From Escherichia phage ETEC-TG: a DNA stretch of 64,000 bases. The stretch is from the sequence record OR786310.1; one strand, written 5' to 3'. A program made the position numbers and the translations under genes. How positions within the stretch are numbered: position 1 is the stretch's first letter; each line of letters opens with the position of its first letter. Below the pieces are notes generated by a model. That model saw nothing but the letters and a program-made list of their open reading frames with translations, did not search any database and was not told where the DNA came from. Of this stretch, positions 24,019 through 59,102 are shown piece by piece.

Positions 24019-24063
24019 TGAATGCTATCCTATCATAAAATGTTTAATATTGTCAAGCTTTAA

Positions 24064-29118: not shown

Positions 29119-29196
29119 TTTTACTTCTCCTCTTGTTTGGTTGATGAGACAAGTATAAGTCCCTTCCGCAAAGTTGTCAACAGGTATTTTTAATAA

Positions 29197-42530: not shown

Positions 42531-42549
42531 AAGTCTCTCCTATAAAATA

Positions 42550-42565: not shown

Positions 42566-42572
42566 TCATCTA

Positions 42573-43547: not shown

Positions 43548-43595
43548 TCTTTTCTCCTCTCTTTGCGGGGAACTATTCCCCGCTTCATGTGATAT

Positions 43596-43623
43596 ATCTT
43601 ACTCTTTTTAAGAACTGTGTCAA
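43596..43623 (-). promoter_or_regulatory. Sigma70-like promoter (TTGACA-N16-TAAGAT) upstream of TerC gene
   Basis: Minus-strand -35 TTGACA (43618-43623) inside conserved AAGTGTTGACA motif; -10-like TAAGAT 16 nt downstream. Confidence 0.4.
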
Positions 43624-43626
43624 CAC

Positions 43627-43848
43627 TTATTTTGTTGAATGAGAGGAAAAGATTCCTCGTAATACCGCCAGAATAAACGAAACACAAACCACGGTCCAGA
43701 AGGTTACTGGGACAGTGATATCTGCATGACCCATAACTTCAGCAACATAGTTGTAAGCCAGCAACAGTAACCAAGCTGGAATCAAACTAAGCATAAAAGC
43801 AATAACAAAAAAGCTTACCACTGCAACAATACCTGCAAAAACACCCAT
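43627..43848 (-). CDS. Small membrane protein (two TM helices)
   Basis: 73 aa, hydrophobic. Confidence 0.45.
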   Translation of the reverse strand: MGVFAGIVAVVSFFVIAFMLSLIPAWLLLLAYNYVAEVMGHADITVPVTFWTVVCVSFILAVLRGIFSSHSTK

Positions 43849-43860
43849 ACTAATCTCCTC

Positions 43861-44334
43861 TTAAAGTTTATAAATAGTCACATCGTGACCTGTTTTTACT
43901 AAAGTTTCTTCAATCATCACTTGGATGATAGCCCAATTACCTCCAGCATATCCAGCGCCAATCATAGGTAAGCCGATCTTACATTTTTGGTCACGGAGAA
44001 GCAAATCATTAGCCATAGCTATTAGTGCATCGTAAAGTGCATCATAGTCCAACTGACGACCTTTAGCATTGTATCCGTAACGGTATTGCCCGTATAGATT
44101 ATATACCAAAGGGTCTGATTGTTCGTCTGGCACCCCTAAACTAAAACAACCTAGTTTACTTTGATCACCAGCCATTGTGTCTAAGTCTGCTGCATATGCG
44201 TAAGGAAATGCTTGTTTGATTTGTGGGGCAATACCTGCCCCCATATTACACATACAGTTGCAACAATGAGCAATAACAGTTACTTCACCTGCTTTAGCGG
44301 CATCAATAAGATTACCTCTTTTCATTTTAAGCAT
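43861..44334 (-). CDS. Macro domain protein (ADP-ribose binding/processing)
   Basis: Start moved to ATG with TAAGGAG RBS; motifs GNLIDAAKAGEVTVIAHCCNCMCNMGAGIA and IGLPMIGAGYAGG resemble macro-domain signatures. Confidence 0.5.
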   Translation of the reverse strand: MLKMKRGNLIDAAKAGEVTVIAHCCNCMCNMGAGIAPQIKQAFPYAYAADLDTMAGDQSKLGCFSLGVPDEQSDPLVYNLYGQYRYGYNAKGRQLDYDALYDALIAMANDLLLRDQKCKIGLPMIGAGYAGGNWAIIQVMIEETLVKTGHDVTIYKL

Positions 44335-44347
44335 TTTTAGCTCCTTA

Positions 44348-45175
44348 TTACAGAATGTGTTGTTTTGTGTAACGATCCAAGAATTCAAAGTTTTCAGCAT
44401 ACTTTGAAATTCGGTTGTAACCTTCTCCCAAACATCCAAAGAAAAGTTGCTCTACATAGTAATGTGGCAATTGGCTAAGAATGATTTTGAAGTCTTCATG
44501 ATTTTGGCCCATAAGATACTTAATAGGACGAACAAGACACTGTGCATCACGTTCTTCATTAATCATTTTAACAAACGCTTCTGGTGTATTAATGTAGTTA
44601 AAATTCAGTTTAGCTTCGGTATCTGCTTGATTACCTTCGTATTTTGCAAAATACAAGAAGTAAACATCATTTTTAACTTGATTTTCATCAAGGATCTCAA
44701 TCAGTTTGTCTTCATGCGTTCCAGTGATATTTACATCATCAATGAATACAAGCTTCTTATCACCCCAGAATTCTTTGTTGCAGTAGAATGTATCCCCATC
44801 AATAAGTTTCTTACGACTAGCTTTATCCAAGAAACCATAATCGTTGATATAGCTAACTTTACGATGAATAATGTCCAGTTCTGCTGAACGACCTTGATCA
44901 TATTGTGATTGCAACATATTAAAGTAATTAATAAAATGATCTGTCATCATTGTTGCAGCATTATGCACATGGTTGTAAGGAGAAGGGATGATAACAAATT
45001 GTTCCCCAATATGTTTCATTGCCACTTGAGCAAAAAACTGAAGTGCCAATTCTTTACCCATACGACGCGCAGCCTGGTTACTACCAAATTTCAATTTTGA
45101 ATAATCTTTAATATCAAAAGTAGCAGTTTCCAGGTCATCAAATTTATTTGCAAAAATTTGAGTTTGATTACGCAT
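44348..45175 (-). CDS. Phosphoribosyltransferase-fold (PRTase) protein
   Basis: 275 aa; PRPP-binding-loop-like motif KLVFIDDVNITGT; GAGGAGA RBS. Confidence 0.55.
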   Translation of the reverse strand: MRNQTQIFANKFDDLETATFDIKDYSKLKFGSNQAARRMGKELALQFFAQVAMKHIGEQFVIIPSPYNHVHNAATMMTDHFINYFNMLQSQYDQGRSAELDIIHRKVSYINDYGFLDKASRKKLIDGDTFYCNKEFWGDKKLVFIDDVNITGTHEDKLIEILDENQVKNDVYFLYFAKYEGNQADTEAKLNFNYINTPEAFVKMINEERDAQCLVRPIKYLMGQNHEDFKIILSQLPHYYVEQLFFGCLGEGYNRISKYAENFEFLDRYTKQHIL

Positions 45176-45824
45176 TTACAATTTCTCCTCTTTTAAGTTT
45201 CTCTAGTAAGTCGTTAGGGTTCTTAATATGACAGAAGTTAAATCCTAAGTCAACACATTTTCCATCATATTCTTCACTATCGCCTACGTGCAATACTTCG
45301 TGCCCTAACAGAGGGATCGGAGAATACGTGAGCGTGCGAGCAAAGAATCGCGGATCTGGTTTACAAAGTAAAGCTTCATCCGAGAAATGGGTGAACTCAA
45401 AACAATTCCAACTATCAAACTTACAAGCACGACGCAGGATATCCCCTGATATGAAGTTGGTATTGCTCTTAATACTCAAATCATAACGCCCCGAAAGATA
45501 CAGCAAGTACATCGGCAGATCCACGGCTACGTGTGGTGGAAACTTAAGGAACCACTGTTCACACTCGAAACGAAGCTTTGCAGACTTCCAAGGCGTTATC
45601 CCAAGTTCAGAACCAAGTTTTTCCCAGGCGTATGCTGCACACTCGGCTTTGCCTTGAAGTGCTGCATTATCCAGTTCCTTTTTGATCTTCTTATAAGCTG
45701 CTCTTGCTTCCACTTCCGTAATATCTCCATATTTTGCGATAGTCCAGGCTCGCATATCTGCGTAATTGGAGTTTGCTGTGATCAGTGTGTTCCATACATC
45801 AAAAGAGATATGTTTAATAGTCAT
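45168..45824 (-). CDS. HAD-superfamily hydrolase (subfamily IA-like)
   Basis: 218 aa; motif I FDVWNTL, motif II SIKSNT, motif III CKPDPRFF, motif IV HVGDSEEYD. Confidence 0.6.
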   Translation of the reverse strand: MTIKHISFDVWNTLITANSNYADMRAWTIAKYGDITEVEARAAYKKIKKELDNAALQGKAECAAYAWEKLGSELGITPWKSAKLRFECEQWFLKFPPHVAVDLPMYLLYLSGRYDLSIKSNTNFISGDILRRACKFDSWNCFEFTHFSDEALLCKPDPRFFARTLTYSPIPLLGHEVLHVGDSEEYDGKCVDLGFNFCHIKNPNDLLEKLKRGEIVNA

Positions 45825-45825
45825 A

Positions 45826-46431
45826 TTAAGCCCACCATGCGTCTAAGTTAAGATTACTGTCCACTACCACTTGTTCTATGTGGTAGCCTTTTATCTGTAT
45901 CCCACTGTTCAAGAGCATATCATACGCTTCATTGAAACGCAACTTATCTTCTGCGGAATATAAGCGAGCATTATAAAATCGGTAATCAATTTCTTCAGCA
46001 TTAGAAGAAATACGGAAGAAGTTTGTTTCTACTTCGGGATCACTTGCTGAAGTCTTAATGTGAACTTCTCCGTAATTTTCTTTACTTAGATCCATGAAAA
46101 GAACACAGGCAACATGTTTAAACATTCGTTCCAGTTTGTAACGAACAACATTGAAACCTGCATTCTCAAGTTTTTCTACACACTGCAACATTAAAGTAGT
46201 GTCGAGATCGCTTTGATACTTTGTTAACATACGATCACGTTGAGACTTTGTATCCCGATGTAAATCAATTGTTGTGCATTTGGCACCAATAATCTTAGCT
46301 GCTTTCATCAACTCTTCAGAACTAACGTTAGATAAAGTAAGATGAAAATGGGCTTTCCACACTTTTTTAGCAGGGACACCAAAAGATTTATCCCCACTAT
46401 TCGGCATGTTGACTACTACACTATGTTGCAT
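45826..46431 (-). CDS. Hypothetical protein
   Basis: 201 aa; contains one HLTL motif but no convincing second 2H motif. Confidence 0.4.
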   Translation of the reverse strand: MQHSVVVNMPNSGDKSFGVPAKKVWKAHFHLTLSNVSSEELMKAAKIIGAKCTTIDLHRDTKSQRDRMLTKYQSDLDTTLMLQCVEKLENAGFNVVRYKLERMFKHVACVLFMDLSKENYGEVHIKTSASDPEVETNFFRISSNAEEIDYRFYNARLYSAEDKLRFNEAYDMLLNSGIQIKGYHIEQVVVDSNLNLDAWWA

Positions 46432-46446
46432 TACTTATCTCCTCAC

Positions 46447-46671
46447 TTAAAATGGAAGTCTTTGAAGTTCATCTCCTCCGATATCAAGTAATTTAGCAAC
46501 ATCTCGATCAGAAAGCAACTCTTTTCTTTGTAAAATATCCACAAGGGTTGCAAGAATGTCCTTAACGTCCCGATCACTGTTCTTCAAAAGTTCTCCTGCC
46601 GTCCCTACTCTATCTCCTACAGCAAAATATGTAACCATGAAACCTCCTAAGTTAATCTGATTGCCAACCAC
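46447..46671 (-). CDS. Hypothetical protein
   Basis: 74 aa. Confidence 0.35.
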   Translation of the reverse strand: MVGNQINLGGFMVTYFAVGDRVGTAGELLKNSDRDVKDILATLVDILQRKELLSDRDVAKLLDIGGDELQRLPF

Positions 46672-47122
46672 TTGCCGTTTTGGTCCATAATCTTTGATTA
46701 TCTGACCCTCTGAAAGGTTTTGTAGTTGGATTGTTTATTTCATACTTTCCGTCTACAATGATGTCAACAAGATTTTTAATATACAAAGGCACTTCCTCAA
46801 AAGTATATCCTGTATACACCATTATATCTTTGCTTGACCCATAAACGTCTCTAACCTTTTCTATAAGGTTTTTAACATTGTAAATATTCTGCGGATCTAA
46901 TGGTTCTCCTCCTAAAATTGTTAAACCTTTTACAAACGGTCTTGACAAATCTTTTAAAACTTGCTCTACATTTTCGTGAGTAAACGGTTTCCCATAAGAA
47001 TAAGACCAGGCTTTTTGGTTAAAACAGCCACGACAACCGTGGCTACAACCACTAACCCAGAGGGAGCACCTAACTCCCTCGCCATTAATAAGATCTACAG
47101 GTTCATATCCTGCAAAATTCAA
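46652..47122 (-). CDS. nrdG: Anaerobic ribonucleotide reductase activating protein (radical SAM)
   Basis: 156 aa; CSHGCRGC (CX3CX2C) cluster; ATGA overlap with nrdD. Confidence 0.7.
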   Translation of the reverse strand: MNFAGYEPVDLINGEGVRCSLWVSGCSHGCRGCFNQKAWSYSYGKPFTHENVEQVLKDLSRPFVKGLTILGGEPLDPQNIYNVKNLIEKVRDVYGSSKDIMVYTGYTFEEVPLYIKNLVDIIVDGKYEINNPTTKPFRGSDNQRLWTKTASGWQSD

Positions 47123-48933
47123 AGATGTTTCTCCCTTTGCAAAACTTCCTGCATTTTACCTTTGTTGTAAGGGCGTGAATTAGGGGCAGAAAGATACCCT
47201 GACACACGCCTAACTACAGAAATAGTTTCTTCTTCATGGTTGCCACAATCAGGACACTCAAACCCTTTAGCCGTTGCCTTAAATTCTCCATGAAAACCAC
47301 ACTTAAAACATTGATCCACGGGCTGATTAATACCAAAATAGTGAATATGTTCATAAGCGTAGTCTACTAAAGTCTCCAAAGCTTCTAAGTTATTCTTTAA
47401 GTTTGGTGTTTCGATATAACTTATGTTACCACCATTGCTAATCTGTGCAAAACCTGCTTCATAATCCCATTTTTCAAAAGGATTTGTTACCAACCATACA
47501 GGTTGGTGAAAAGAGTTGGTAAGATAATCTCTTTCTACCAAACCTGGGTATTTTTCATTTAAAGCTGTTGCAAACTTATAGCACAAGGATTCTGCTGGGG
47601 TTCCATAGAGACTAAACGCCAACTTAGATCGTTCTTTAAACACAGCACACACATCTTTCATATGTTGCAGAATGCTTTTACCAAGTTCCTTTTTATCTTT
47701 TTCTTCTGGATAAAGGATTTCCAAAGCTTCGGCAAGACCTACATAACCAATACTAATAGAAGCATAACCACCTTCAAACAAAACACCAATTTCATCATTG
47801 GCATTTAAACGCGCTAAAGCCCCTTCCATGAAAAGAATAGGGTTTTCAGATGCTTTGGTATGTCTAATACGGTTTACACGTAACATGTGAGCATCGTAAG
47901 CTATCTCCATATGTTTATTAAGGAGGTCGGTGAAAGATTCTCCTTTACTTCTCGCTTCCGCAGCAATCAGAGGCAAGTTGATAGAAACTACTCCAAGGTT
48001 GAATCGTCCATCATATTTTTCTCCTTGTTCGGTGGCATAGTACGACAAAAAGGAACGACAACCCATACTCGTAACAGTACCATCTGCTGATCCCGTAACT
48101 TCTTTGTTCAAAGGAACAGAAATAAAATCTGGATAAATACGATCAGCACAACATGCCAAAGCTTGTTGTTTAAGGTCATAGTTAGGATCACTAGGTTTCA
48201 TGTTAACACCTTCTTGTAAAAAGAAAATAACTTTAGGGAATACAGGTGTTACATGATCTTTGCCTAGACCGTTACTATGCACTTTAAGATAGTTAGCTGT
48301 GATCATTCTGCCAAAAACAGAGGTATCCAGACCCATGCTGATTGTAATAAAAGGAGATTGTCCATTTACACTCATTAAAGTATTAACCTGATACAAGAGA
48401 GTTTGCATAGCATCATATACATCTTGTTCGGTCATTTCTAGTGCTTCTTTCCTTGCATAACAACCGTAGCGACGTTTGGTTATCTCCATGTTTTTAAGGA
48501 AACTAGCTTCAACATAAGGACTAAGACCTTTATCAATGTGCGCACACGTCTGACCTCCATACTGACTGGAGGCAACAGCTTGGATGATTTGAGTTAGCAC
48601 TGTGGTAGCTACCCCAACAGATTTTGGTTTTTCTATCTGTGCGGCTCCGATCTTAAAGCCATTCTCTAACATATCTTGATAATTAACAAGACAACAGTTT
48701 GTAAGAGGAGAGAGTAGATAATCTAAGTCGTGAATATGTCCAAAACCTTCTGTATGCCATTCTGACAAGTTTTTTGGCAGTATCTGTGTCATTGCCATAT
48801 GTTTGCTTAAAATCCCCGCCAAGAGATCCCTGTGCGTGTTAACGAGGTGGGAAGGTTTGTTTGCATTCTCTCTAGTGTATGTTTCTGAAGTGCGATCTAA
48901 AAAAGAAAAAACATCTTGGTACAAATCTTTCAT
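47119..48933 (-). CDS. nrdD: Anaerobic ribonucleoside-triphosphate reductase
   Basis: 604 aa; C-terminal zinc ribbon CFKCG ... CPDCG followed by glycyl-radical motif RRVSGYL. Confidence 0.8.
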   Translation of the reverse strand: MKDLYQDVFSFLDRTSETYTRENANKPSHLVNTHRDLLAGILSKHMAMTQILPKNLSEWHTEGFGHIHDLDYLLSPLTNCCLVNYQDMLENGFKIGAAQIEKPKSVGVATTVLTQIIQAVASSQYGGQTCAHIDKGLSPYVEASFLKNMEITKRRYGCYARKEALEMTEQDVYDAMQTLLYQVNTLMSVNGQSPFITISMGLDTSVFGRMITANYLKVHSNGLGKDHVTPVFPKVIFFLQEGVNMKPSDPNYDLKQQALACCADRIYPDFISVPLNKEVTGSADGTVTSMGCRSFLSYYATEQGEKYDGRFNLGVVSINLPLIAAEARSKGESFTDLLNKHMEIAYDAHMLRVNRIRHTKASENPILFMEGALARLNANDEIGVLFEGGYASISIGYVGLAEALEILYPEEKDKKELGKSILQHMKDVCAVFKERSKLAFSLYGTPAESLCYKFATALNEKYPGLVERDYLTNSFHQPVWLVTNPFEKWDYEAGFAQISNGGNISYIETPNLKNNLEALETLVDYAYEHIHYFGINQPVDQCFKCGFHGEFKATAKGFECPDCGNHEEETISVVRRVSGYLSAPNSRPYNKGKMQEVLQREKHL

Positions 48934-48998
48934 TATTAATCCTTATTTTGTGAGTAGAACTATTATTCTACCTCTTCCAACCGAAAAAAGCTTTGAGG

Positions 48999-49028
48999 AA
49001 AATCAAAAAAGGCGCAAAGTGCGCCTTT
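48999..49028 (-). terminator. Rho-independent terminator upstream of nrdD
   Basis: AAAGGCGCA-AAGT-GCGCCTTT with U-tract on the minus-strand transcript. Confidence 0.55.
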
Positions 49029-49033
49029 AAGTT

Positions 49034-50380
49034 TTATCGTTTGGAGAGGAATTGTCTTCCCATGATCTTACCGTTCTTTACAGCGGTCCCATCGTGTCCA
49101 TTATAATCCCAAGTTCCATCAATGTTACGCAAGAAGCTATCACGAACAGTGTAGGCTTTACCGTTCTCTACTTTACTTTCTTCCACAATGATTGCCATAA
49201 CAAGCTTATTTTCAATTTCGGTAGTAACCGATTCTTTAATACCTTCTGTAACTTCACGATCATATTGGATATAAACTCGCTCCTCGGTCACTTGCACGTC
49301 TACCACATTTTTAAATGTGTATGTCTGCTGTGTAGTGTAAAGGACACGAACGACACTCTTCTTACCTACTGGAGGCTTCTGACGACGCTTGCGGTAACGG
49401 GGAGACGGGTTAAGTTTAATATAACCTACAATATCTGATCCATCTCCAGAGTGGCTCCAATAAAACGTCTCTGCCAAACCTTTTCCTTGGTCCCCATTTC
49501 GAAAAAGAACATTAACAGGACCATCACAAGGGCGTCTACCTCCGATGTGGGCTTGGTATTTTGCTGTTCTTGGGAGAACAAAATATTCTTCAATCTGCCA
49601 TTCACTGTCGTATTTCTCCCATTCGAAGTGGTTGGCTTTGCATACTTCTAAAACACCATTTTTGTAACGGACTTGAACAAAGTCCTCACAAGGTTGAATA
49701 CCTGTATTAGGAATATAGGTAGGCTCTGTGTCTTCTGGTTCAAAAGTCTCTTTTTGTTGTTCCACATCTTCCACTTTTCTTACATGCTTAGTATAAAACA
49801 TATCTTTAAACTCCTGTGCTTCAACCTCAACTGCAAATTCATGTTCTCTAACAGCCGGAGGCACAAGGCTTCCACACTCAAGATGTAGAGCATCCAGACC
49901 TGCCGTTTTATCGTAAAAGATAACTTTTCGATACTTCTTACCGTCTTCTGGAATAGCAGGATCTACTCGTTTAAGACGGGAAGCATCGCTTTTAGTCCAA
50001 AAACTCTTCCCTGTTGTATTATTGAAAGTAGTAATCATTTCTCCAATTTCTTCTTCAGAAAGGTTACTAGTGTCTGTGTAAACATCTTCAATTTTTAGCA
50101 TTTTAGTTTTCTTAAAAATTAAATCTAGCATTGCATCTCCTGTAAAACGTAGTTCATTATCTCCTACTGTCGGCTCTCCAGTAAATTCATCGGTCCCGAC
50201 TGTGTGACAGATGTATGGAAAATTTGTGCAACCGTGTAAAAGAGCATATTGTCCTGTAAGTTTAGGATCTGTCTCTTTAGTCCAACCATATGCAATCTCA
50301 ATAGCTTTGCAAAGCCTATCGAACAAGCCCCGATTGTTTGCCGCTGTTACCAAATCTTGCTTATGTGCATATACATTCAT
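49034..50380 (-). CDS. Hypothetical protein (448 aa)
   Basis: Long ORF, no recognisable motif by eye. Confidence 0.5.
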   Translation of the reverse strand: MNVYAHKQDLVTAANNRGLFDRLCKAIEIAYGWTKETDPKLTGQYALLHGCTNFPYICHTVGTDEFTGEPTVGDNELRFTGDAMLDLIFKKTKMLKIEDVYTDTSNLSEEEIGEMITTFNNTTGKSFWTKSDASRLKRVDPAIPEDGKKYRKVIFYDKTAGLDALHLECGSLVPPAVREHEFAVEVEAQEFKDMFYTKHVRKVEDVEQQKETFEPEDTEPTYIPNTGIQPCEDFVQVRYKNGVLEVCKANHFEWEKYDSEWQIEEYFVLPRTAKYQAHIGGRRPCDGPVNVLFRNGDQGKGLAETFYWSHSGDGSDIVGYIKLNPSPRYRKRRQKPPVGKKSVVRVLYTTQQTYTFKNVVDVQVTEERVYIQYDREVTEGIKESVTTEIENKLVMAIIVEESKVENGKAYTVRDSFLRNIDGTWDYNGHDGTAVKNGKIMGRQFLSKR

Positions 50381-50931
50381 AATAACCCTCCTCGTTTTAT
50401 TGCAATAGATGCCCTAGGCTCTGCGATACCAGTGGCGTATAAATATGGATGACCTTGTGGAGAAGTTCTCATCCCAAACGAACCTAATTCTAACCCATAC
50501 ATATCTTCCACGTCAAGACCAATATCTGTCTCTATGATTTGAGTTTGAACTTTGTAATACGTCCAAAAGAAATAGCGCATAGTTTCGGCATATTCTTTGA
50601 CGGACGCTCCTGGATAAAACTCAATAATTTCCAACTTTAAGAAAATGTTAAAATGAGCATCATCCAACTCTTCTTCTGTTCGGTAGCAAGGTGTTAGAGC
50701 CATATAAGGATGATCTGTTGAAAATTCAAACCCATCTTTCTCCATCTGGAGGAAAGACTGCTCTGCACTGGCTACGTAGAACTTACCATTAGGATGCCCC
50801 AAGGGGCGATCCTCTTTACCTTCTGGTAATGTATATGCAAGGATATCTGCATCTACAAGATAAGGGACTTCCAACATCTCCGCAAATCGCCCATAGTAAT
50901 CAATAGCTTGAGCAATAACAGCTACGTTCAT
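50377..50931 (-). CDS. Hypothetical protein
   Basis: 184 aa; ATGA overlap downstream. Confidence 0.45.
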   Translation of the reverse strand: MNVAVIAQAIDYYGRFAEMLEVPYLVDADILAYTLPEGKEDRPLGHPNGKFYVASAEQSFLQMEKDGFEFSTDHPYMALTPCYRTEEELDDAHFNIFLKLEIIEFYPGASVKEYAETMRYFFWTYYKVQTQIIETDIGLDVEDMYGLELGSFGMRTSPQGHPYLYATGIAEPRASIAIKRGGLL

Positions 50932-51179
50932 GATCTTCCTCCTGTGCGGAAAGCGCGTTTAGTAATGTTGGACATAATGATTAAGTCTTGTAAAGTCATA
51001 TCTGGGAACTGTTGTTCTAAAACTCCCTCAACAGCACCTATAATATCTGATAATTCAACAAGTTGCATTATTTTGCAATCCTGCTCGACAGCATCAAAAA
51101 GTTCTTCTACTTCCTCTTTAATCTTTTCTATGCTGCCATAAGGTTGTTTCTTAATGTCTGTTATGTGATACCCTGCCAT
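50928..51179 (-). CDS. Putative MazG-like nucleotide pyrophosphohydrolase (all-alpha NTP-PPase)
   Basis: 83 aa; EEVEELFDAVEQ ... ELSDIIGAVEGV resembles MazG/HisE-type helices. Confidence 0.35.
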   Translation of the reverse strand: MAGYHITDIKKQPYGSIEKIKEEVEELFDAVEQDCKIMQLVELSDIIGAVEGVLEQQFPDMTLQDLIIMSNITKRAFRTGGRS

Positions 51180-52772
51180 TTAACGATCCTCTCTGATTTG
51201 ATTAATCTTACGAGCAAGGGCAGCTATAAGCTTATCTTCTTCAGATACAGGAGCCGTGCTCTTACCTAAACGATGCATGTCTAAAATCTCTTGAACAGTC
51301 CGGTTCCATTGCAGACATTTAATACAACGTGTATGTGCAACATACAGAAGATTTCGTTCTGATTCTTCAAGACCTACCCACTCACCCTTCTTATCATAAT
51401 TGGAAGGGAAGTCATTTGCAACAATAACCTGATCCCACTCCAAACCTTTTGATTTGTGGGCTGTAGTTAAAGTAACTTTAGCCGTTGGAGAGTTACGGTG
51501 CATACGTAAAGTGTATGCAATATTATTAGCTTTACCAGAAACAACAATGTTTAAAAGTCGTTTTGCATCAGGATCTGATTCTGCACACTCTACAAATTCT
51601 TCCCAAGAAGTGTAAGGGAGAACTGTCTCATGCTTAACTTTGTCCAAATCACCTCTACGTAAAGCATTAACACTATCAACCATAGAAATGAAATCTTTGG
51701 TATCTACGTTAATAATAATCTCTTCTCCGTTAGCGATTCGGTCCATAGCTTCGAGCAACAGAGTCAAATTTTTACGGAAAATAATGGTGTAAGGTTTACT
51801 ATAATCTACCACATCAGAATGAAAACTTCCAGTGACAGTATCATAACCTTTGCCTACCAGCGGATGCTTCAGAGGTGAGCGATCAGAAAGGATCGCATTA
51901 GCAATGTCCGCAACTTTAGGACCAAAGCGAAAACAAGCTGTCAGAGGCAACTCAACCCCATATGTAGCCGTTTGCTTCATCATGTTCTGGCTTCCACGGA
52001 ACTGATAAATACTCTGAAATTCATCACCCACAACAACAATACGTTTAGCTGATTTAGCATTGCGAAGGATAGACAGGAATGCAGGGTTAACATCCTGGAA
52101 TTCATCTCCAAAAATAATATCGTATCCTAAGTCTTCTTTGCTCAATTCAAAGAGTTTCACATAGGTGTCATGAGTCATAATGGTTTCTGATTTAGGATCA
52201 ATACGCTCACGCCAAAGTTGCTTCGCATATTTAACAACTTCGTTAATAAGTTTTTGTTCGTTGATGTTCTTACGTTTAAGATCTGACATATGCACTTTAG
52301 GAAAATGTTTATGTCCGATATGTTCATCGTCAGAAAACTCATATTTAGCTAAAGTTTGTTTTACCATTAACCCGATCATTGCACGAGTCAGTAGCACTTT
52401 ACCATTCTTATCAATCAAGTTCTGAATCTTGAATTTTTTGGCAATCTCACTACCAGTTCCAGCTACGTTAACATATTGACCTTCTGGACGAGACAATTTG
52501 TGTCGAAGGTTTTGTGGAAGACGCTGGTAACAGATTGAATGTAGCGTTCGGCACATAACGTTAGGCGGCATTTTACGTCGAGCTTCCTCTGCCATACTCT
52601 TGTTAAAGGCCAAGTATAGAATACTATCATTTGTGCCATTAGCCAACATATACAGTGTTGACGTTTTACCTGATCCAGATTTAGCTTGAATTGTAACGAA
52701 ACGATTTTCTTTATACCCGCTTTCAATAGCGTATTGTTCCTCGGTAGGTGTAAAACTCAATTGTGTAGACAC
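51180..52772 (-). CDS. UvrD/Rep-family (SF1) DNA helicase
   Basis: 530 aa; Walker A QAKSGSGKTST; motif II GDEFQDVNP; motif V/VI TAHKSKGLEWDQVIV. Confidence 0.65.
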   Translation of the reverse strand: MSTQLSFTPTEEQYAIESGYKENRFVTIQAKSGSGKTSTLYMLANGTNDSILYLAFNKSMAEEARRKMPPNVMCRTLHSICYQRLPQNLRHKLSRPEGQYVNVAGTGSEIAKKFKIQNLIDKNGKVLLTRAMIGLMVKQTLAKYEFSDDEHIGHKHFPKVHMSDLKRKNINEQKLINEVVKYAKQLWRERIDPKSETIMTHDTYVKLFELSKEDLGYDIIFGDEFQDVNPAFLSILRNAKSAKRIVVVGDEFQSIYQFRGSQNMMKQTATYGVELPLTACFRFGPKVADIANAILSDRSPLKHPLVGKGYDTVTGSFHSDVVDYSKPYTIIFRKNLTLLLEAMDRIANGEEIIINVDTKDFISMVDSVNALRRGDLDKVKHETVLPYTSWEEFVECAESDPDAKRLLNIVVSGKANNIAYTLRMHRNSPTAKVTLTTAHKSKGLEWDQVIVANDFPSNYDKKGEWVGLEESERNLLYVAHTRCIKCLQWNRTVQEILDMHRLGKSTAPVSEEDKLIAALARKINQIREDR

Positions 52773-52786
52773 GTATTTCTCCTCTC

Positions 52787-53302
52787 TTAATAAAAACTCT
52801 TGACAATCCTCATCATTTCCTTAACTCTGCTGGCATAAGGTTCTTTTAGATTAGGTGGCAAATGTGCATTAATGTACCCCATTTGTTTTTCCCATGTCCA
52901 CTTATCTTTAAATCTTGGCATGGTGTCTCCTGCTAAACTGTTTTCTTTTCGTGTTTGAATAATCCAATTACATGGAAAATGCACACCACCTTTACGGAAG
53001 GGAATATAATGTCCCAATGTGAATGCCTTATTATTCTTTAAACGTCCAGCTAAATTAAGATTAACAATAAGACTACGAAACACGTAGTATTGATAAAGAT
53101 TGTCAACAGTATATACAGAGTAGTATGCTCTAAGTGCATTATCTCTACTAAGATTACCAACATCCAAACTGCACCAGTTTAAATTACTTGGATCGTAGTT
53201 GTGATTATCAATCCATTCTTCTCTTTCCTCAAATTCTGCATTAACAGCAGACTGCCCTGCTGTAGATACAAAAAGAGAATTTGCATCAAAGAACATACTC
53301 AC
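52787..53302 (-). CDS. Hypothetical protein
   Basis: 171 aa. Confidence 0.45.
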   Translation of the reverse strand: MSMFFDANSLFVSTAGQSAVNAEFEEREEWIDNHNYDPSNLNWCSLDVGNLSRDNALRAYYSVYTVDNLYQYYVFRSLIVNLNLAGRLKNNKAFTLGHYIPFRKGGVHFPCNWIIQTRKENSLAGDTMPRFKDKWTWEKQMGYINAHLPPNLKEPYASRVKEMMRIVKSFY

Positions 53303-53309
53303 TCCCCCT

Positions 53310-53720
53310 TTAGTTTACATCGTTTAGAGCATTACCAATCTTTAAGATAATAACATCATTAAGAGCGTCTTCTCCATTAAGGCCAGAGAAAGCAGGAGTA
53401 ACGAAAGTTACCATATAATAATGGTCTTCTTGTAGGATTGCGATAACGCCGTCTAGTTTAACATCTCCTGTGAAACGAAAAACTTTCAACTTTTGTTCTA
53501 AAGGAAGATCTCCTTCAACATTTAAAACCATATCTCCGACACCAAACTTTTCTGCCCCGATGTAGATGTAAGCTTGGTCCTCTTTTTTATGGTAATACAA
53601 TGTTGCTTGTTTGTCTTGTAGTGTTGTGATACCAAACACATCCACATCAATAATATTTTTCAAAAATTCTCCTCCCAAATCCAATAATTGTCTACATAAG
53701 TAGGATGCCTTTTGTCCCAC
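53310..53720 (-). CDS. Hypothetical protein (5' end uncertain; overlaps upstream gene)
   Basis: 136 aa ORF; 61-nt overlap with 53660-54028 suggests the true start is downstream. Confidence 0.35.
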   Translation of the reverse strand: MGQKASYLCRQLLDLGGEFLKNIIDVDVFGITTLQDKQATLYYHKKEDQAYIYIGAEKFGVGDMVLNVEGDLPLEQKLKVFRFTGDVKLDGVIAILQEDHYYMVTFVTPAFSGLNGEDALNDVIILKIGNALNDVN

Positions 53721-54028
53721 TCTTTTCTAGCCCAAGCTACGGCTGCTACCAATACATCTCCATGACAAGGTTGAGGTGAGCAGAAGCAAACTAAATCTTT
53801 CCCTTCTAACTCTAATAAATCTTCAAGAGTGATCTTACCACAACGAATTTGCTCCCACAACCACTCTTTATACCTTTGTATAGTTGATCCTCGTGGCTCA
53901 TCATCTTTTAACTTAAAAGGGTTTGCAAACTTAGAGGCTTTTAGTCCCATGTGTGGCATTGCTCTACCAATATAAACAGCACCTTCTGGGATTGTTTTGC
54001 CTAAATGGTAAAAGTTTAATACCTTCAT
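53660..54028 (-). CDS. Conserved phage protein with NPF ... CFCSPQPCHGD motif (DUF4326-like)
   Basis: 122 aa; YIGR ... NPF ... CFCSPQPCHGDVL pattern recalled as DUF4326-type; unverified. Confidence 0.4.
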   Translation of the reverse strand: MKVLNFYHLGKTIPEGAVYIGRAMPHMGLKASKFANPFKLKDDEPRGSTIQRYKEWLWEQIRCGKITLEDLLELEGKDLVCFCSPQPCHGDVLVAAVAWARKEWDKRHPTYVDNYWIWEENF

Positions 54029-54029
54029 A

Positions 54030-54392
54030 TTAACCTAAACACATACGTGCGATCAGACCCTGGATGAGTTTATCTGCTTCTTCCCGATCATAGTCGGTAT
54101 CTTCTATACCACCATCTTCGTCACGATAAACTTTACCTTCCAGGTACCCAGCATCGATCAAACCAATAATCAAATCGAACTGCCAGCAAGAGTTACCGAA
54201 AGGGCGTTTTCCACTGAAACTATCTTCTTCTTCCCAAAGCGTAGAGAGCAGTCGTCTGAAATATTCACGCACAGTAACAGTGCCAAGATCATCGTCTTCA
54301 AAAACAACATCTAAAGCATCTGGTTCAGCTTTCTCTACAACAGGCACATAACGTTGACCATTAATAACAACATCTACGATTGTTTCTCTCAT
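54030..54392 (-). CDS. Hypothetical acidic protein
   Basis: 120 aa. Confidence 0.4.
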   Translation of the reverse strand: MRETIVDVVINGQRYVPVVEKAEPDALDVVFEDDDLGTVTVREYFRRLLSTLWEEEDSFSGKRPFGNSCWQFDLIIGLIDAGYLEGKVYRDEDGGIEDTDYDREEADKLIQGLIARMCLG

Positions 54393-54751
54393 TTTTCCTC
54401 CTTTTTGTATTCAATGAACATATCTGCATAGTAAGCTTTACGTTCTTCAAATTTAGCAGGGTTTACCACAATGAACAACACCTTTCTGTTGTCTTGTGGT
54501 TCTTTGACTGTAATATATAACTCTTTTGTGCAATAGAAACCTGTGGCTTTGTAAGCGTCACCCCAATTATCCACTCCACGATCTATACGATCAAACTTGC
54601 AGTTATACTTTTTATCATCCACCTGGTAGACAGCTTCACCACCATACCAAGTGAAGAATTGGCTACCTTCCACCCCAATCTTGAAACCATCACGGGCGGC
54701 TGTAGCATTGGTGGCAATCATCAACATCAGGATACAAAGTAGCCTTTTCAT
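54389..54751 (-). CDS. Secreted protein (signal peptide)
   Basis: 120 aa; N-terminal MKRLLCILMLMIATNATAA. Confidence 0.45.
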   Translation of the reverse strand: MKRLLCILMLMIATNATAARDGFKIGVEGSQFFTWYGGEAVYQVDDKKYNCKFDRIDRGVDNWGDAYKATGFYCTKELYITVKEPQDNRKVLFIVVNPAKFEERKAYYADMFIEYKKEEK

Positions 54752-55057
54752 TTAGAATTCCTCTTCAGTCTTCTGTCGGTTTTTGAAGAATACTACGTCA
54801 TACACCTCTCCGTAACCATCATTTACACAGAACATAATAAAACGATCATCTTCTGCTGTTGGTGCGCGATGTTCAAGTTCAAAACTTTCAATAAAACCGC
54901 GTGAATTTACGTAGTAGATTTCATCCTCACCAGAGAACATCCAATCCCTGTCTATCAGATAGAAAGCTAAACTCACAGGCGACAACTCATCCTTCACAGA
55001 ATCATTGTACAGCATGTGGGCTGCAACTGCCAAACTTAAAGTCGTATTGTGCCGCAT
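54752..55057 (-). CDS. Hypothetical protein, tandem paralog 1
   Basis: 101 aa; LSLAVAAH ... RAPTAEDDRFIMFCVNDGYGEVYDVVFFK; paralog of upstream gene. Confidence 0.45.
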   Translation of the reverse strand: MRHNTTLSLAVAAHMLYNDSVKDELSPVSLAFYLIDRDWMFSGEDEIYYVNSRGFIESFELEHRAPTAEDDRFIMFCVNDGYGEVYDVVFFKNRQKTEEEF

Positions 55058-55365
55058 TACATCTCCTCGTCGGACTTCAAGGCTTTAGAGAATACTACAT
55101 TAAACGTTTCACCGCAACCATTATTAACATAATACATGATGTAATTGTCATCTTCGTCTACAGGCGCACGATACTCCAGTTCATAACTATACAAATTAGA
55201 ATTACTTGTGCAACCTTGTGGATACCAAAAGTAGAGTTCATCCCCAGATTCTACCCATTTAAGACCAGTCCGATCTTCAAACACTAATGTAGATGGGTTT
55301 TCTGAATCTTTTACAGCTTCTTCGTAATACTGATGCACCGTAACTGCTAATGATAATGTACTCAT
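55057..55365 (-). CDS. Hypothetical protein, tandem paralog 2
   Basis: LSLAVTVH ... RAPVDEDDNYIMYYVNNGCGETFNVVFSK; ATG at 55365 preferred over the GTG start at 55368 used by the ORF track. Confidence 0.45.
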   Translation of the reverse strand: MSTLSLAVTVHQYYEEAVKDSENPSTLVFEDRTGLKWVESGDELYFWYPQGCTSNSNLYSYELEYRAPVDEDDNYIMYYVNNGCGETFNVVFSKALKSDEEM

Positions 55366-55538
55366 CACGCCTCCAAATAGTGTTTACAAATGACAAAACG
55401 CCATGTTTGTTTATAATAGTCTCTTTTTTCAAGAGCCTCTTTGTAAGAGGGTATACGTTGCGACAGAAGCATCCATTCACAGTCTGCACCCATTCTTCCA
55501 TAAAGCGCGTAACGGATGTTACTTTGTTTATCTCCCAT
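55365..55538 (-). CDS. Small hypothetical protein (57 aa; not in ORF track)
   Basis: Hand-translated MGDKQSNIRYALYGRMGADCEWMLLSQRIPSYKEALEKRDYYKQTWRFVICKHYLEA; AAGGAGG RBS 5 nt upstream; stop overlaps next start. Confidence 0.4.
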   Translation of the reverse strand: MGDKQSNIRYALYGRMGADCEWMLLSQRIPSYKEALEKRDYYKQTWRFVICKHYLEA

Positions 55539-55581
55539 AAATGCCTCCTTAATCTTGTTTACAAGTATACCCTCTAATTAG

Positions 55582-55779
55582 TTACACTTTTTCCCAAGTA
55601 CCAAAAGCACAGGAAGGGTAGATTCCAACTTGAGGGTTTCCGTTATCATCTTTGAAAGTAAAACTGTTGTTGTCTTTATCAAGAACTGTAGAATAAATCT
55701 TACCAACAGTAACGCAGTTGGAAGCTTGACCCAGTTCAGTGAGAGTAAGACATTTCATTTTCTGTTTCTTTGTAGCCAT
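55582..55779 (-). CDS. Small hypothetical protein
   Basis: 65 aa. Confidence 0.35.
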   Translation of the reverse strand: MATKKQKMKCLTLTELGQASNCVTVGKIYSTVLDKDNNSFTFKDDNGNPQVGIYPSCAFGTWEKV

Positions 55780-55861
55780 TTATAAAATCTCCTTAGTAAG
55801 TGAATCTTTATTCTACACAAAGAGCTTTGCACATGTCAAGTAACTCTTTGTCAGATTAGTC

Positions 55862-56131
55862 TTAATGATTAATGATGTTGATGACAATCTTAGTTTCAAC
55901 CTTAGCCCAACAGTAATCTGCTTCATTAAAACGACTAGTCACAATGTATTCTCCTGCACGAGAACCTGTTAAGCACACTGCACCTGTATCTGTAGCTAAG
56001 TAGTAGTCCCGTTCTTGTTCACTTACTTCTGAATCGTAGTAGTAGAAAACAGACATAGGTTCAATTTCAGATAAACGGTATAACTTTGGAACAGGGGATT
56101 TCTCGATAAACTCAACAGAAGTTTTACTCAT
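55862..56131 (-). CDS. Hypothetical protein
   Basis: 89 aa; ATGA overlap. Confidence 0.4.
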   Translation of the reverse strand: MSKTSVEFIEKSPVPKLYRLSEIEPMSVFYYYDSEVSEQERDYYLATDTGAVCLTGSRAGEYIVTSRFNEADYCWAKVETKIVINIINH

Positions 56132-56364
56132 TTGTTTTCTCCTAGATCTAAACTAATTAAGAAGTCACGAAGGATGATCATTTGTTCTGTAGACAATGAT
56201 AATACACCTTCTCCATAAATATCACCAGACCATTCAGCAGTTAGATCTAGTGTACCAGTACCAGGAAACCAATCAACAGTGATCTGATTACCATTAGAGT
56301 CAGGTAGTATTTCACTGACTAACATAACACACTCTCCTATTATTGTTCTTGATCTTACGATCAT
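56128..56364 (-). CDS. Hypothetical protein
   Basis: 78 aa. Confidence 0.4.
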   Translation of the reverse strand: MIVRSRTIIGECVMLVSEILPDSNGNQITVDWFPGTGTLDLTAEWSGDIYGEGVLSLSTEQMIILRDFLISLDLGENK

Positions 56365-56501
56365 CTACCGATAAGAACAAGTACTTAAATCTCTGTTCTT
56401 CGAACATCTAACGATAGAGATTAATCTATTACATAATCTATACTCGCTATCGCTCGACCCTTCGGGGTTAGGGTAGCATATTTTTTGAAAAAAGTCAACA
56501 C

Positions 56502-56819
56502 TTATTTTTTGGTAAGTAGATAAATCAATTGTTCACCTGCTTCTGGTGCATATAGTGCTTTAGTATCGAAGTCAAAGAAGTGAGTGACTCCTGTTACTTT
56601 GGATGCATGAATAGATAATCGTGCAAGCTTAAGCAGATTATCCATTTCCGCAATCTTTGCACGAAATACTGCACGTGTAGCGTCAAAAGCTGCATGTGGC
56701 ATGTATTTACGATTTAGACTACTACGTTTAAATTTACGATAATCTGCAATGATCCTGTTACGTTCTTTGTTCAAGTGCTTTACCAGTGCAGTATATACAT
56801 GTGGTTCTTTGTTAGCCAT
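56502..56819 (-). CDS. Hypothetical basic protein
   Basis: Start moved to MANKEPH with GAGGAGA RBS. Confidence 0.4.
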   Translation of the reverse strand: MANKEPHVYTALVKHLNKERNRIIADYRKFKRSSLNRKYMPHAAFDATRAVFRAKIAEMDNLLKLARLSIHASKVTGVTHFFDFDTKALYAPEAGEQLIYLLTKK

Positions 56820-57024
56820 TGTTAATCTCCTCTTCATATGTTGGTAGTGCATGGTATGCGATCACAGGTGCCAAGTCAAAATAAAAATGACCATTGATAA
56901 CAGCTATCGTGCCATTGCGTGTTTTGTTAACTTCACAGAATCCCTTCTTGCCGTTTGCCATGATTACAAGCCACTCTCCGATAGGAACATCCTCGGTACC
57001 AGATACTTTAATCCATCCACTCAC
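56812..57024 (-). CDS. Hypothetical protein
   Basis: 70 aa. Confidence 0.35.
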   Translation of the reverse strand: MSGWIKVSGTEDVPIGEWLVIMANGKKGFCEVNKTRNGTIAVINGHFYFDLAPVIAYHALPTYEEEINNG

Positions 57025-57281
57025 TTTACTTCCCCTTTGTAATCGGACACTATACCAGGTCTTACTTTTGCCTTAAGATGTTTCAACTCTGCCATAGGAG
57101 TTGCCACTTGTATAAGGTTAATAATTTCAACCTCGTAGATAGTATACTCATAACCCGCATACTTCCCGATGGAATGCAGGTATTTGATAGCATGTTCAGG
57201 TGAATCTGCTTCAACATACCCCAAATCTTTTGTAGTGCGGCCTTCACAGTCGCCTTCTGTAGTTACGTGATAAAGTGTCAT
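57021..57281 (-). CDS. Hypothetical protein
   Basis: 86 aa; GAGGAGG RBS. Confidence 0.4.
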   Translation of the reverse strand: MTLYHVTTEGDCEGRTTKDLGYVEADSPEHAIKYLHSIGKYAGYEYTIYEVEIINLIQVATPMAELKHLKAKVRPGIVSDYKGEVK

Positions 57282-57427
57282 AAAACCTCCTCATAGTAAG
57301 GTAAAGCCTTGATCAGTTGTTCTGAAGTGCCATTTTGCACCCACGTAACACCCTTGTCAAGAGAAACATACCCTTTCTTATTGATAAATTTACGGAGACA
57401 ACCAGTGAACTTGTTTTTGTAGATCAT
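57278..57427 (-). CDS. Small hypothetical protein (49 aa; not in ORF track)
   Basis: Hand-translated MIYKNKFTGCLRKFINKKGYVSLDKGVTWVQNGTSEQLIKALPYYEEVL; ATGA overlaps at both ends. Confidence 0.3.
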   Translation of the reverse strand: MIYKNKFTGCLRKFINKKGYVSLDKGVTWVQNGTSEQLIKALPYYEEVL

Positions 57428-57852
57428 TTCTTCTTTCCTTTCTTTAATTTGTTGTGACCTTTACCCTTATAAAGCTTGTGATTACGAGCAGACGGGTTAT
57501 TTTGGTTCTCCAGTCGGCTAACAGGTGTATTCCAAAGGTTTCCTGCTACAAAAGATGCTGCCACAAGTTCTTCCAGGTATACAAAATCCAAAGCAGGTAT
57601 CTTTGTTTCCCTCATCTCGCGTTCTACATTAGACAACACGCCTTCTTCCTTACTGTCTTCTTTTTCAATTACAAACCAACCCTGTTCCTGCCAAGCTTCC
57701 CCTCGGAACCAGTTTGACATATTGTAGCCATGCTCATCCAGAATAACACCGTATTGCATCTCAAACCACTCATCACTACAGAAGTATTCGTGCTTCACAC
57801 GTTTGCCATTCTGCATCGCTTCTTTAGCTTCGGTCCAAGTCATGTTTTGCAT
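57424..57852 (-). CDS. Hypothetical protein (first gene of minus-strand block)
   Basis: 142 aa; Trp/Glu-rich; basic C-terminus. Confidence 0.45.
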   Translation of the reverse strand: MQNMTWTEAKEAMQNGKRVKHEYFCSDEWFEMQYGVILDEHGYNMSNWFRGEAWQEQGWFVIEKEDSKEEGVLSNVEREMRETKIPALDFVYLEELVAASFVAGNLWNTPVSRLENQNNPSARNHKLYKGKGHNKLKKGKKK

Positions 57853-57882
57853 TTGTTTTCTCCTCTCGTTTTGTATGAGTTG

Positions 57883-57910
57883 ATTTTAACAGGACTAAAA
57901 AGCATGTCAA
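57883..57910 (-). promoter_or_regulatory. Sigma70-type promoter TTGACA-N16-TAAAAT driving minus-strand block
   Basis: Minus-strand -35 TTGACA (57905-57910) within AAGTGTTGACA motif and -10 TAAAAT (57883-57888). Confidence 0.55.
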
Positions 57911-57913
57911 CAC

Positions 57914-57941
57914 TTGATCTGAAATTATTTTCAGGTATCAT
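57914..57941 (+). promoter_or_regulatory. Sigma70-type promoter TTGATC-N16-TATCAT driving plus-strand block
   Basis: Divergent partner of the minus-strand promoter; about 25 nt upstream of RBS/ATG at 57967. Confidence 0.45.
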
Positions 57942-57966
57942 GTATGAACATTAACAAGAGAGGTAG

Positions 57967-58260
57967 ATGATGAACATTACTTTAGCAACTAAGAATATTT
58001 CTGAAACAATTAACGGTTTTGGTGTGATTGTAGCCTTGCACGGTAACAATGAGAAATGGTTGGCTTCTTTTGAAGAGGATCGTCAACACAACATTATTTT
58101 AGATGCCCCTATAAAAGTTATGCATATCGTTGGTGAAAGCAAAGTGCTCACTTCCTCCCGTTCAAAAGAACAAATTACAAATGAATTAGTAAAACTGCTT
58201 GACAATGTTCTTAACATGTTTGATAATGCACCCATCGATACAAAACGTGTCTTAATGTGA
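57967..58260 (+). CDS. Hypothetical protein
   Basis: 97 aa; RBS GAGAGG. Confidence 0.45.
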   Translation: MMNITLATKNISETINGFGVIVALHGNNEKWLASFEEDRQHNIILDAPIKVMHIVGESKVLTSSRSKEQITNELVKLLDNVLNMFDNAPIDTKRVLM

Positions 58261-58272
58261 GAGGAGAACAAA

Positions 58273-58560
58273 ATGTACTATTCACAAGACGAAGTAGCAA
58301 ACATTAAACTGGCAGTGGGAGATCTTATTGTGTCACCTAACTACTATTGGGATAACAGAGATTTGGTTGAAGTAGTAACCCATGTTGGAGTTGAAGGTAT
58401 TGTGCTCTACACACTAGGTGGAGGTGTTGTTGGGGAAATGGAACGTTATACGACAACGAAGAAACTGGTAAGCTCTTATCACATGTTTTTACACCAAGGT
58501 TCGGAAGAGTATACAGCTTTCTTGTTGAAATTAGATGCAGATCGGGAGAAGGCACGATGA
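58273..58560 (+). CDS. Hypothetical protein
   Basis: 95 aa; GAGGAGAA RBS. Confidence 0.45.
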   Translation: MYYSQDEVANIKLAVGDLIVSPNYYWDNRDLVEVVTHVGVEGIVLYTLGGGVVGEMERYTTTKKLVSSYHMFLHQGSEEYTAFLLKLDADREKAR

Positions 58561-58913: not shown

Positions 58914-58915
58914 AT

Positions 58916-59092: not shown

Positions 59093-59102
59093 TGGAGGTA
59101 AT

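Follow-up and report, generated by a model that had tools for sequence, protein, structure and literature searches.

The repeated 10-mer and its genomic setting

The 10-mer AAGTGTTGAC was analysed in a stretch of 64,000 nucleotides (nt) from Escherichia phage ETEC-TG (sequence record OR786310.1), here called the window. It occurs in three intergenic regions, which lie upstream of a gene for a TerC-family membrane protein (Pfam TerC match, E = 3e-40), of a small gene with no known function, and of a 142-amino-acid (aa) open reading frame (ORF; 57424..57852) that heads the leftward block. The window was 98.5-98.9% identical to dw-ec and anhysbys, two Escherichia phages of the genus Phapecoctavirus, subfamily Stephanstirmvirinae; both are virulent myoviruses of E. 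coli, with genomes of ~150 kb. Judged by its sequence, the window is Phapecoctavirus DNA, from a phAPEC8-like E. coli phage. The gene map of the window was transferred from an annotated relative by tblastn, and the motif was also searched for in the complete annotated anhysbys genome and in 149 of the 151.8 kb of dw-ec. Orthologous regions came mostly from GenBank phage records; searches of IMG/VR with single proteins gave few loci.

Four exact copies of AAGTGTTGAC (plus-strand form GTCAACACTT) were present in the window, all on the minus strand, where 0.13 were expected from a dinucleotide-preserving shuffle; none of 100 such shuffles contained four or more. Three of the four copies lie in intergenic DNA, which makes up 3.3% of the window. 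An exact string search confirmed the three intergenic minus-strand sites, in the orientation that an earlier note on this DNA had described. The start that it gave for the second site (56494) was exact, whereas those for the first and third (43618 and 57905) were each one base low, the true starts being 43619 and 57906. The fourth copy, which the note had overlooked, lies in the DNA polymerase gene (Table 1). There it is read as the codons ...CTA AGT GTT GAC..., encoding ...GLSVDFF..., and it is kept as coding sequence in both anhysbys and dw-ec. No evidence for a promoter role of this copy was found.

Probable sigma-70 promoters at the three intergenic sites

Each intergenic site consists of a perfect or near-perfect -35 hexamer followed at 16-17 bp by a -10 of the form TAnnnT, and two of them carry the TG of an extended -10. 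All three have the arrangement of a sigma-70 promoter, namely a -35 near TTGACA with TAnnnT 16-18 bp away. The two -10 boxes previously assigned (TAAAAT at 57883-57888 and TAAGAT at 43596-43601) were correct, with a spacer of 16 bp at both; the remaining site also has one that had gone unnoticed, TG-c-TACCCT at 56470-56478, behind a 17-bp spacer. All three sites are intergenic and point to a gene with a Shine-Dalgarno (SD) site and an ATG. The hexamers and their spacing were preserved at orthologous positions while the flanks diverged; they were found in other Phapecoctavirus lineages, in Justusliebigvirus (ECGD1, alia, KKP_3264), in Citrobacter phage Tr1 and in metagenomic relatives.

The pattern TTGACN-N16-18-TAnnnT gave 86 matches in anhysbys, of which 43 (41 distinct sites) fall in the intergenic 9.7% of the genome, an enrichment of TTGAC-type promoter matches of ~9-fold. 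Because half of its matches are intergenic, the pattern is a meaningful promoter detector in this genome. On account of their hexamers, their 16-17 bp spacing, their position and orientation before an SD-bearing gene and their conservation in relatives, the three AAGTGTTGAC sites are predicted to be promoters, and very probably are. It is highly improbable that they are instead chance matches to TTGAC in AT-rich intergenic DNA. A simple promoter scan of 43000-62900 did return about as many consensus matches as were present in shuffled sequence (65 against 56.9 +/- 8.0), but chance explains neither the intergenic enrichment nor the correct orientation of the sites and the conservation of hexamers, spacing and downstream SD across genera.

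Lytic coliphages use canonical sigma-70 promoters of E. coli as early promoters, with an A-rich region that resembles an upstream promoter (UP) element. The phage promoters, which also have E. coli as host, are like them in TTGACA/T, the 16-18 bp spacer, TAnnnT and, in most of the 41 anhysbys sites, an A-tract from -45 to -39. They differ from canonical UP-element promoters in that the A-tract is partly made up of the TAA stop codons of upstream genes, and its function as a UP element is only inferred. The second and third sites also resemble the extended -10 (TGn) promoters of E. coli, with TG one base 5' of the -10 (TGcTACCCT and TGtTAAAAT).

The analysis shows the anatomy, the conservation and the genome-wide statistics of the three sites, and their transcription initiation and timing class are likewise inferred. 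The host sigma-70 RNA polymerase would read three separate promoters soon after infection, serving the TerC-family gene, the small gene that follows a long structured leader, and the gene at the head of the leftward block. Three predicted sigma-70 promoters would be added in this way to a phage group with unmapped transcription, and the resulting promoter map could be used in the annotation and engineering of phAPEC8-like therapeutic phages.

Table 1. Features at and around the AAGTGTTGAC sites, with coordinates in the window unless a locus is named.
Feature	Coordinates	Strand	Details
Copy 1 of AAGTGTTGAC	43619..43628	-	First 2 bases (43627-43628) within the TAA stop (43627-43629) of the upstream 73-aa ORF
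Copy 2 of AAGTGTTGAC	56494..56503	-	First 2 bases within the TAA stop (56502-56504) of the upstream 116-aa ORF
Copy 3 of AAGTGTTGAC	57906..57915	-	Within the divergent intergenic region 57853-57966
Fourth exact copy of AAGTGTTGAC	25682..25691	-	Inside the DNA polymerase ORF (25286..27883)
TerC-family promoter (predicted)	43596..43623	-	-35 TTGACA 43618-43623; 16-bp spacer; -10 TAAGAT 43596-43601
5' untranslated stem-loop GCGGGGA-ATAG-TTCCCCGC	43565..43583	-	GC-rich; begins ~12 nt past the -10; -14.6 kcal/mol, z = -4.5
Class B promoter (predicted)	56470..56498	-	-35 TTGACT 56493-56498; 17-bp spacer; TG 56477-56478; -10 TACCCT 56470-56475
Class B downstream box	56443..56468	-	12-nt palindrome/mini-hairpin ACCC-CGAA-GGGT 56457-56468, then CGAGCGATAGCGAG 56443-56456
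Leader	56326..56442	-	~120 nt, non-coding, from the class B box to the probable ATG 56323-56325; SD 56331-56340
Leftward promoter (predicted)	57883..57910	-	-35 TTGACA 57905-57910; 16-bp spacer; TG 57890-57891; -10 TAAAAT 57883-57888
Rightward partner promoter (predicted)	57914..57941	+	-35 TTGATC 57914-57919; 16-bp spacer; -10 TATCAT 57936-57941
Comparison promoter, -35	24051..24056	-	Intergenic, sigma-70-like; upstream AAAGC, extension absent
Comparison promoter, -35	29175..29180	-	Intergenic, sigma-70-like; upstream ACCTG, extension absent
Comparison promoter, -35	55834..55839	-	Intergenic, sigma-70-like; upstream GTTAC, extension absent
Class B elements in anhysbys	L002 35471-35514; L003 19745-19788; L004 7481-7537	-; -; +	
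Class B elements in other loci	L012, L023, L032, L035, L036, L038, L039, L040, L044, L046		

The bases upstream of the -35 hexamer

The bases AAGTG, which the three sites share directly upstream of TTGAC, had been proposed to mark a phage-specific early promoter class or the binding site of a phage regulator. This proposal was unsupported: the extended motif is rare genome-wide, varies in orthologues and falls in three architectures. We consider, with a probability of about 0.75, that the three sites are ordinary sigma-70 promoters and that the five shared upstream bases are no dedicated element, promoter class or regulator site.

In the window, AAGTG precedes 3/6 of the intergenic TTGAC-type promoters, the other three being listed in Table 1. 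Among the 41 intergenic promoters of anhysbys it precedes two, and AAGTR precedes five. The whole-genome search that the earlier note had proposed gave only three exact copies of AAGTGTTGAC in each of anhysbys and dw-ec, namely the copy in the polymerase gene and copies 1 and 2; copy 3 reads AAGTATTGACA in both, with the extension AAGTA. A class-defining motif would be present in most or all promoters of its class throughout the genome, and its extension would be conserved in orthologues above background. Neither was the case for AAGTGTTGAC. At orthologous promoters the hexamers stay while the extension is replaced by AAGTA, AAGGC, AATGC, ACTAG, AGTTG, GAGTA, CAGTA or AGGGG.

The 41 anhysbys promoters were aligned on the -35 and the information at each position was calculated. 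From -45 to -39, A is present in 20-30 of the 41 promoters, with 0.29-0.60 bit per position, and the values at -38, -37 and -36 are 0.03, 0.14 and 0.20 bit. On these values, the 'AA' of the extension is part of the A-tract common to these promoters, and its 'GTG' is no general feature. The commonest single 5-mer upstream of the -35 was found three times, a count that was matched in 34% of column shuffles.

The local context of each copy accounts for part of the shared string. Copies 1 and 2 follow directly on stop codons, in the contexts ACA AAA TAA / GTG TTGACA (ending ...T K stop) and AAA AAA TAA / GTG TTGACT (ending ...K K stop), and at copy 3 the 'AA' pairs with the 'TT' of the divergent plus-strand -35, TTGATC. 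The sites belong to three unrelated architectures, a cassette resembling the promoter-early stem-loops of T4-like phages, a class B promoter and a back-to-back divergent pair, and beyond the -35 the three promoters have wholly different spacers, -10 boxes and leaders. Most likely, the A-rich tract (-45 to -39) found on nearly all promoters of the phage ends with the 'AA' at -40/-39. This tract would derive from stop codons and a UP-element-like A-tract, with the complement of the partner -35 taking its place at the divergent site, and 'GTG' at -38 to -36 would be a weakly preferred or inherited filler that is free to vary in orthologues. A striking repeated 10-mer can arise in this manner from overlapping mundane constraints, namely stop codons, A-tracts and a neighbouring -35. 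This genome does contain phage-specific classes of promoter, none of them defined by AAGTG.

Several observations weigh on the other side. The sharing of one 5-mer by three of six promoters has P ~0.001 under independence, using the column frequencies of the 38 other anhysbys promoters, and a cruder empirical resampling gives 0.03. AAGTR precedes the anhysbys promoters more often than the 1.2 expected (post hoc P = 0.0065), and the class B promoters described below (n=11) are enriched in G at -38 (9/11) and in T at -37 (8/11). The literature searched contained no start-site data for this phage group. Publications on Phapecoctavirus and phAPEC8 promoters, on Stephanstirmvirinae transcription and on the motif itself offered generic promoter-prediction counts only, with no description of these motifs. 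A real weak preference just 5' of the -35, or the copying of -35-proximal segments between cassettes, is plausible, and neither amounts to a separate promoter class or operator.

The first of these ideas would make A-A-G-T-R at -40 to -36 a soft, weakly selected extension of the -35. Acting at the promoter-proximal UP subsite, it would strengthen polymerase binding through the C-terminal domain of the alpha subunit (alpha-CTD) or sigma region 4 in a subset of the strongest promoters of the family, with no dedicated regulator. We regard this as unlikely. Apart from the excess of AAGTR and the G and T preferences of class B, it draws on T being the commonest base at -37 (20/41) and on the UP proximal subsite, whose consensus is AAAAAARNR (~-46 to -38). 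Copies 1 and 2 read AAAATAAG and AAAAATAAG from -46 to -38, fits of 7/9 and 8/9 to this consensus, with 5/9 for copy 3, in a tract that overlaps the stop codons. Over all promoters, however, -38 to -36 hold just the 0.03-0.20 bit given above; the bases change freely in orthologues and are absent from most of the strongest-looking cassette promoters. The pattern was also picked post hoc, among paralogous and orthologous copies that are not independent. Under the reading of ordinary promoters, the A-tract may still provide UP-like alpha-CTD contacts, and -40 to -36 might influence promoter strength by that route.

Two further candidates were set aside. GTG after the stop codons is not a credible start codon, as the frames run for just 13 and 26 codons and have no ribosome-binding site. 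The sites of IHF (WATCAANNNNTTR) and the half-sites of CRP, compared by eye, do not fit the three contexts.

The predicted TerC-family promoter and its stem-loop cassette

The -35 and -10 of the TerC-family promoter are kept in phiWec186, PsgM04F, SF1-1, Mt1B1_P17, alia and the IMG/VR loci L005-L007; Klebsiella phage KP13-16 has no promoter at this site. AAGTG is retained only alongside an upstream ORF that ends in AAA TAA (SF1-1, Mt1B1_P17, phiWec186 and PsgM04F), and three other lineages have AAGGC, AATGC and ACTAG. The promoter is followed by a GC-rich stem-loop (Table 1), an SD site at 43553-43560 and the ATG at 43545-43547. The stem is kept in relatives by compensatory changes, which give the arm pairs GCGGAGGA/TCCTCCGC, GGGAGAG/CTCTCCC and GAGGGAG/CTCCCTC. 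As an intrinsic terminator the hairpin was rejected, because neither strand has a U-tract.

These parts recur in this order as a cassette, which starts with a stop codon embedded in A-rich sequence and continues with TTGACA, 16 bp, TAAGAT or TAAACT, gTATCACAT, a GC-rich stem-loop of 6-9 bp, the SD and the ATG. One cassette lies inside the window and ~20 stand between small ORFans at 44-53.5 kb of anhysbys, just past the right end of the window (L002 44100-50000 and L003 1-3500 in anhysbys; L019 ~37500-49000 in dw-ec). Of 23 cassettes that were folded, only anh_53485, which is degenerate, failed to form a stable GC-rich hairpin; the complementary stem sequences are of five or more kinds. The insertions of dw-ec relative to anhysbys are exact modules of one ORF plus one cassette, which points to gene shuffling by way of the cassettes in a phage outside the T4-like group.

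Promoter-early stem-loops (PeSLs) are known from T4-like phages (PMC2839356, PMC4122927), and the cassette was compared with the PeSL definition of PMC2839356. Within ~100 bp, 43545-43629 holds a stop codon in an AT-rich stretch, a sigma-70 promoter, a stem-loop, an SD and an ATG; many copies flank small ORFans, and the indels between anhysbys and dw-ec are bounded by cassettes. In this order of parts, repetition among ORFans and cassette-bounded indels, the cassette of the window and the ~20 in relatives are like PeSLs. In PeSLs the stem-loop acts as a terminator or attenuator and mini-circles are formed; the cassette departs from them in its lineage and its stem-loop. The phage is a member of Stephanstirmvirinae; its stem-loop lies always ~10-14 nt past the -10, at the 5' end of the transcript, whereas a PeSL stem lies mostly between or over the hexamers; and there is no U-tract. 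Because the subfamily is unrelated, the stem lies past the -10 and the U-tract is absent, the cassette is by analogy one that works like a PeSL but is not placed in the PeSL family. Starting ~5 nt from the predicted 5' end, its stem-loop would most likely insulate and stabilise the mRNA, attenuate upstream read-through as PeSL stems do, or both. These findings are evidence that the early region is assembled from PeSL-like promoter-hairpin cassettes, and that such cassettes promote the shuffling of genes in phages other than the T4-like ones.

Cassette-mediated shuffling would also raise the question of whether the shared bases are a relic of descent. On this account the segment next to the -35, together with the last bases of the upstream ORF (AAA TAA GTG TTGAC), was copied between cassettes by recombination, and its identity is historical, not functional. 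Copying of this kind is how PeSL-type cassettes spread. Copies 1 and 2 have 15 identical bases, AAAATAAGTGTTGAC, and GAATAAAAAGTATTGACA is common to two early cassettes. Wherever anhysbys and dw-ec differ by an indel, its limits coincide exactly with cassettes, as where an extra ORF and cassette stand between a cassette and its ATG, and the homology of Justusliebigvirus to the TerC locus starts inside the promoter spacer. We nevertheless find this origin doubtful for the three sites, which differ completely 3' of the -35. A 15-mer repeat is unremarkable in 64 kb of AT-rich DNA, and copy 3 has a different upstream context and gains or loses its final G by point change.

Bacterial TerC/Alx genes often carry a riboswitch of the yybP-ykoY type. 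None was detected by an Rfam scan at the TerC-family gene, whose region (42573-43629, minus strand) has a short 5' untranslated stretch of ~45 nt with one hairpin.

The class B element and its leader

The promoter at the second site belongs to a type that is rarer than the cassette type and is designated class B here. Eleven class B copies from several phages were compared, and TTGACTT, TG and TACCCTA are invariant among them. Three are in anhysbys (35514-, 69788- and 107481+) and three in one 153-kb IMG/VR contig, with more in ECGD1 and other contigs; the element is found in at least two genera. As a composite (56443-56498 of the window, minus strand), it consists of TTGACTT, 16-17 bp, TG-n-TACCCTA, a palindrome of 10-14 nt that is usually closed round GAA, and a box GAGCG-(A/AT/C/GG)-AGCGAG. 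The box, GAGCG-N1-2-AGCGAG, itself has the form of a GC-GNA-GC mini-hairpin. The palindrome was judged in each sequence separately; a column-based covariation test was dropped since the register differs between copies. Class B is unlike ordinary extended -10 promoters in joining a perfect -35 to a -10 (TACCCTA) that is poor yet never varies, and in having a conserved box downstream. The perfect -35 and the TG would compensate for the poor -10.

No description of this composite was met in the literature searched, and the element (TACCCTA/GAGCG-AGCGAG) is the only lead of the analysis with some novelty. We tentatively raise the possibility that 56443-56498 is an undescribed composite control element of Stephanstirmvirinae, and not just a promoter. 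If so, the three class B copies per genome, at strategic junctions, would start structured non-coding or leader RNAs, or would prime or activate replication origins, and the weak preference for G(-38) and T(-37) would belong to the class B signature. The bases of the AAGTG extension itself are not kept: orthologues of copy 2 have AGTTG (in the phiWec/PsgM04F/L008 lineage), GAGTA (ECGD1) or CAGTA (L032).

Between the box and the gene lies the leader (56326-56442), which contains four TAGAT motifs and a direct repeat TATCG(T/G)TAGATG. Its segments AAGAACA / TGTTCTT / AAGAACA could form two alternative hairpins just 5' of the SD. The 3' part is largely conserved between Phapecoctavirus lineages. 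Folding of the leader gave a z of only -2.1. Rfam searches, run over the whole window at gathering thresholds and permissively over 56200-56560, gave no credible family, the only matches being snRNA and snoRNA models with E = 2-9. TAGAT is 10-fold enriched downstream of the three anhysbys class B promoters (13 vs 1.3) and has no occurrence in the distant loci L032, L039 and L040. As a defining feature of class B it was rejected, since the enrichment fades in distant relatives.

The mechanically called ORF behind the leader has 78 aa (56128-56364, minus strand). It probably starts at the internal ATG 56323-56325, giving a protein of 65 aa with the SD ATAGGAGAGT; this start agrees with the annotation of relatives and with the full length of PHROG 25113.

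The class B copy at 107.3-107.8 kb of anhysbys (L004 7300-7800) stands in a gap of 490 bp between divergent gene blocks. The promoter is followed there by three copies of TTAAGGTT, and the gap contains many GTACT repeats (AGTAC/GTACT nine times, over both strands) and a long palindromic stretch rich in AT. The three class B regions together have 11 occurrences of AGTAC/GTACT against 0.29 expected. The iteron-like, AT-rich gap looks like a candidate replication origin.

The predicted divergent promoter pair

The leftward promoter at the third site is the best sigma-70 match in 43000-62900 (11/12). It is conserved in anhysbys, L008, phiWec188, phiWec186, PsgM04F, ECGD1, KKP_3264 and Tr1. Its rightward partner lies upstream of a DUF7325 gene (57967..58260), and the pair separates the leftward and rightward gene blocks, with predicted starts ~72 bp apart. 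The two -35 hexamers are separated by 3 bp (CAC, 57911-57913) and read TGTCAA-CAC-TTGATC on the plus strand (57905-57919), an inverted repeat. This back-to-back arrangement was conserved across four lineages, among Phapecoctavirus, Justusliebigvirus and Citrobacter phage Tr1, with a separator of 3-4 bp that varies (GTG, GTA, GGGG). The extension is AAGTG or AAGTA in Phapecoctavirus and Justusliebigvirus and AGGGG in Tr1.

Such symmetry could also be that of a protein-binding site. The three units might be co-regulated by a protein that binds AAGTGTTGAC, either a regulator encoded by phage or host or an RNA polymerase modified by the phage; the motif is over-represented and intergenic, and it forms the inverted repeat TCAA-GTG-TTGA at 57906. 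We consider this very unlikely. The palindrome at copy 3 is two back-to-back -35 hexamers whose centre varies in sequence and length, and copies 1 and 2 have neither a dyad nor a direct repeat. A regulator site would have symmetry or a conserved core apart from the -35; at the three sites no such core was found, and the only symmetry is that of the two hexamers. Orthologous promoters do not keep the motif, a genome has no more than 2-3 intergenic copies of it, and close relatives, presumably with the same regulators, have AAGTA at copy 3. PHROGs and Pfam assigned no known function to the adjoining genes.

The PR and PRM promoters of phage lambda are a back-to-back divergent pair. The pair described here is like them only in geometry, with overlapping upstream regions. 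It differs in that its -35 hexamers lie 3-4 bp apart as an inverted repeat. Neither an operator nor a repressor is evident here, in what is a virulent phage. The two promoters probably compete, because two polymerases cannot independently use overlapping upstream DNA.

Other features of the window

Two strong hairpins that resemble bidirectional terminators were noted at 49008-49028 (AAAGGCGCA...TGCGCCTTT) and 61568-61587 (AAACCCGC...GCGGGTTT). They have T-runs on both strands and are located between genes of the minus and plus blocks.

The DNA polymerase of anhysbys contains an in-frame insertion of 244 aa (residues 584-827) without counterpart in the 865-aa polymerase of the window (25286-27883, minus strand). 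When compared with L002 3565-6897, the flanks of the insertion were 99.7-100% identical to the polymerase of the window. By its appearance, the insertion is a candidate intein or comparable mobile element.

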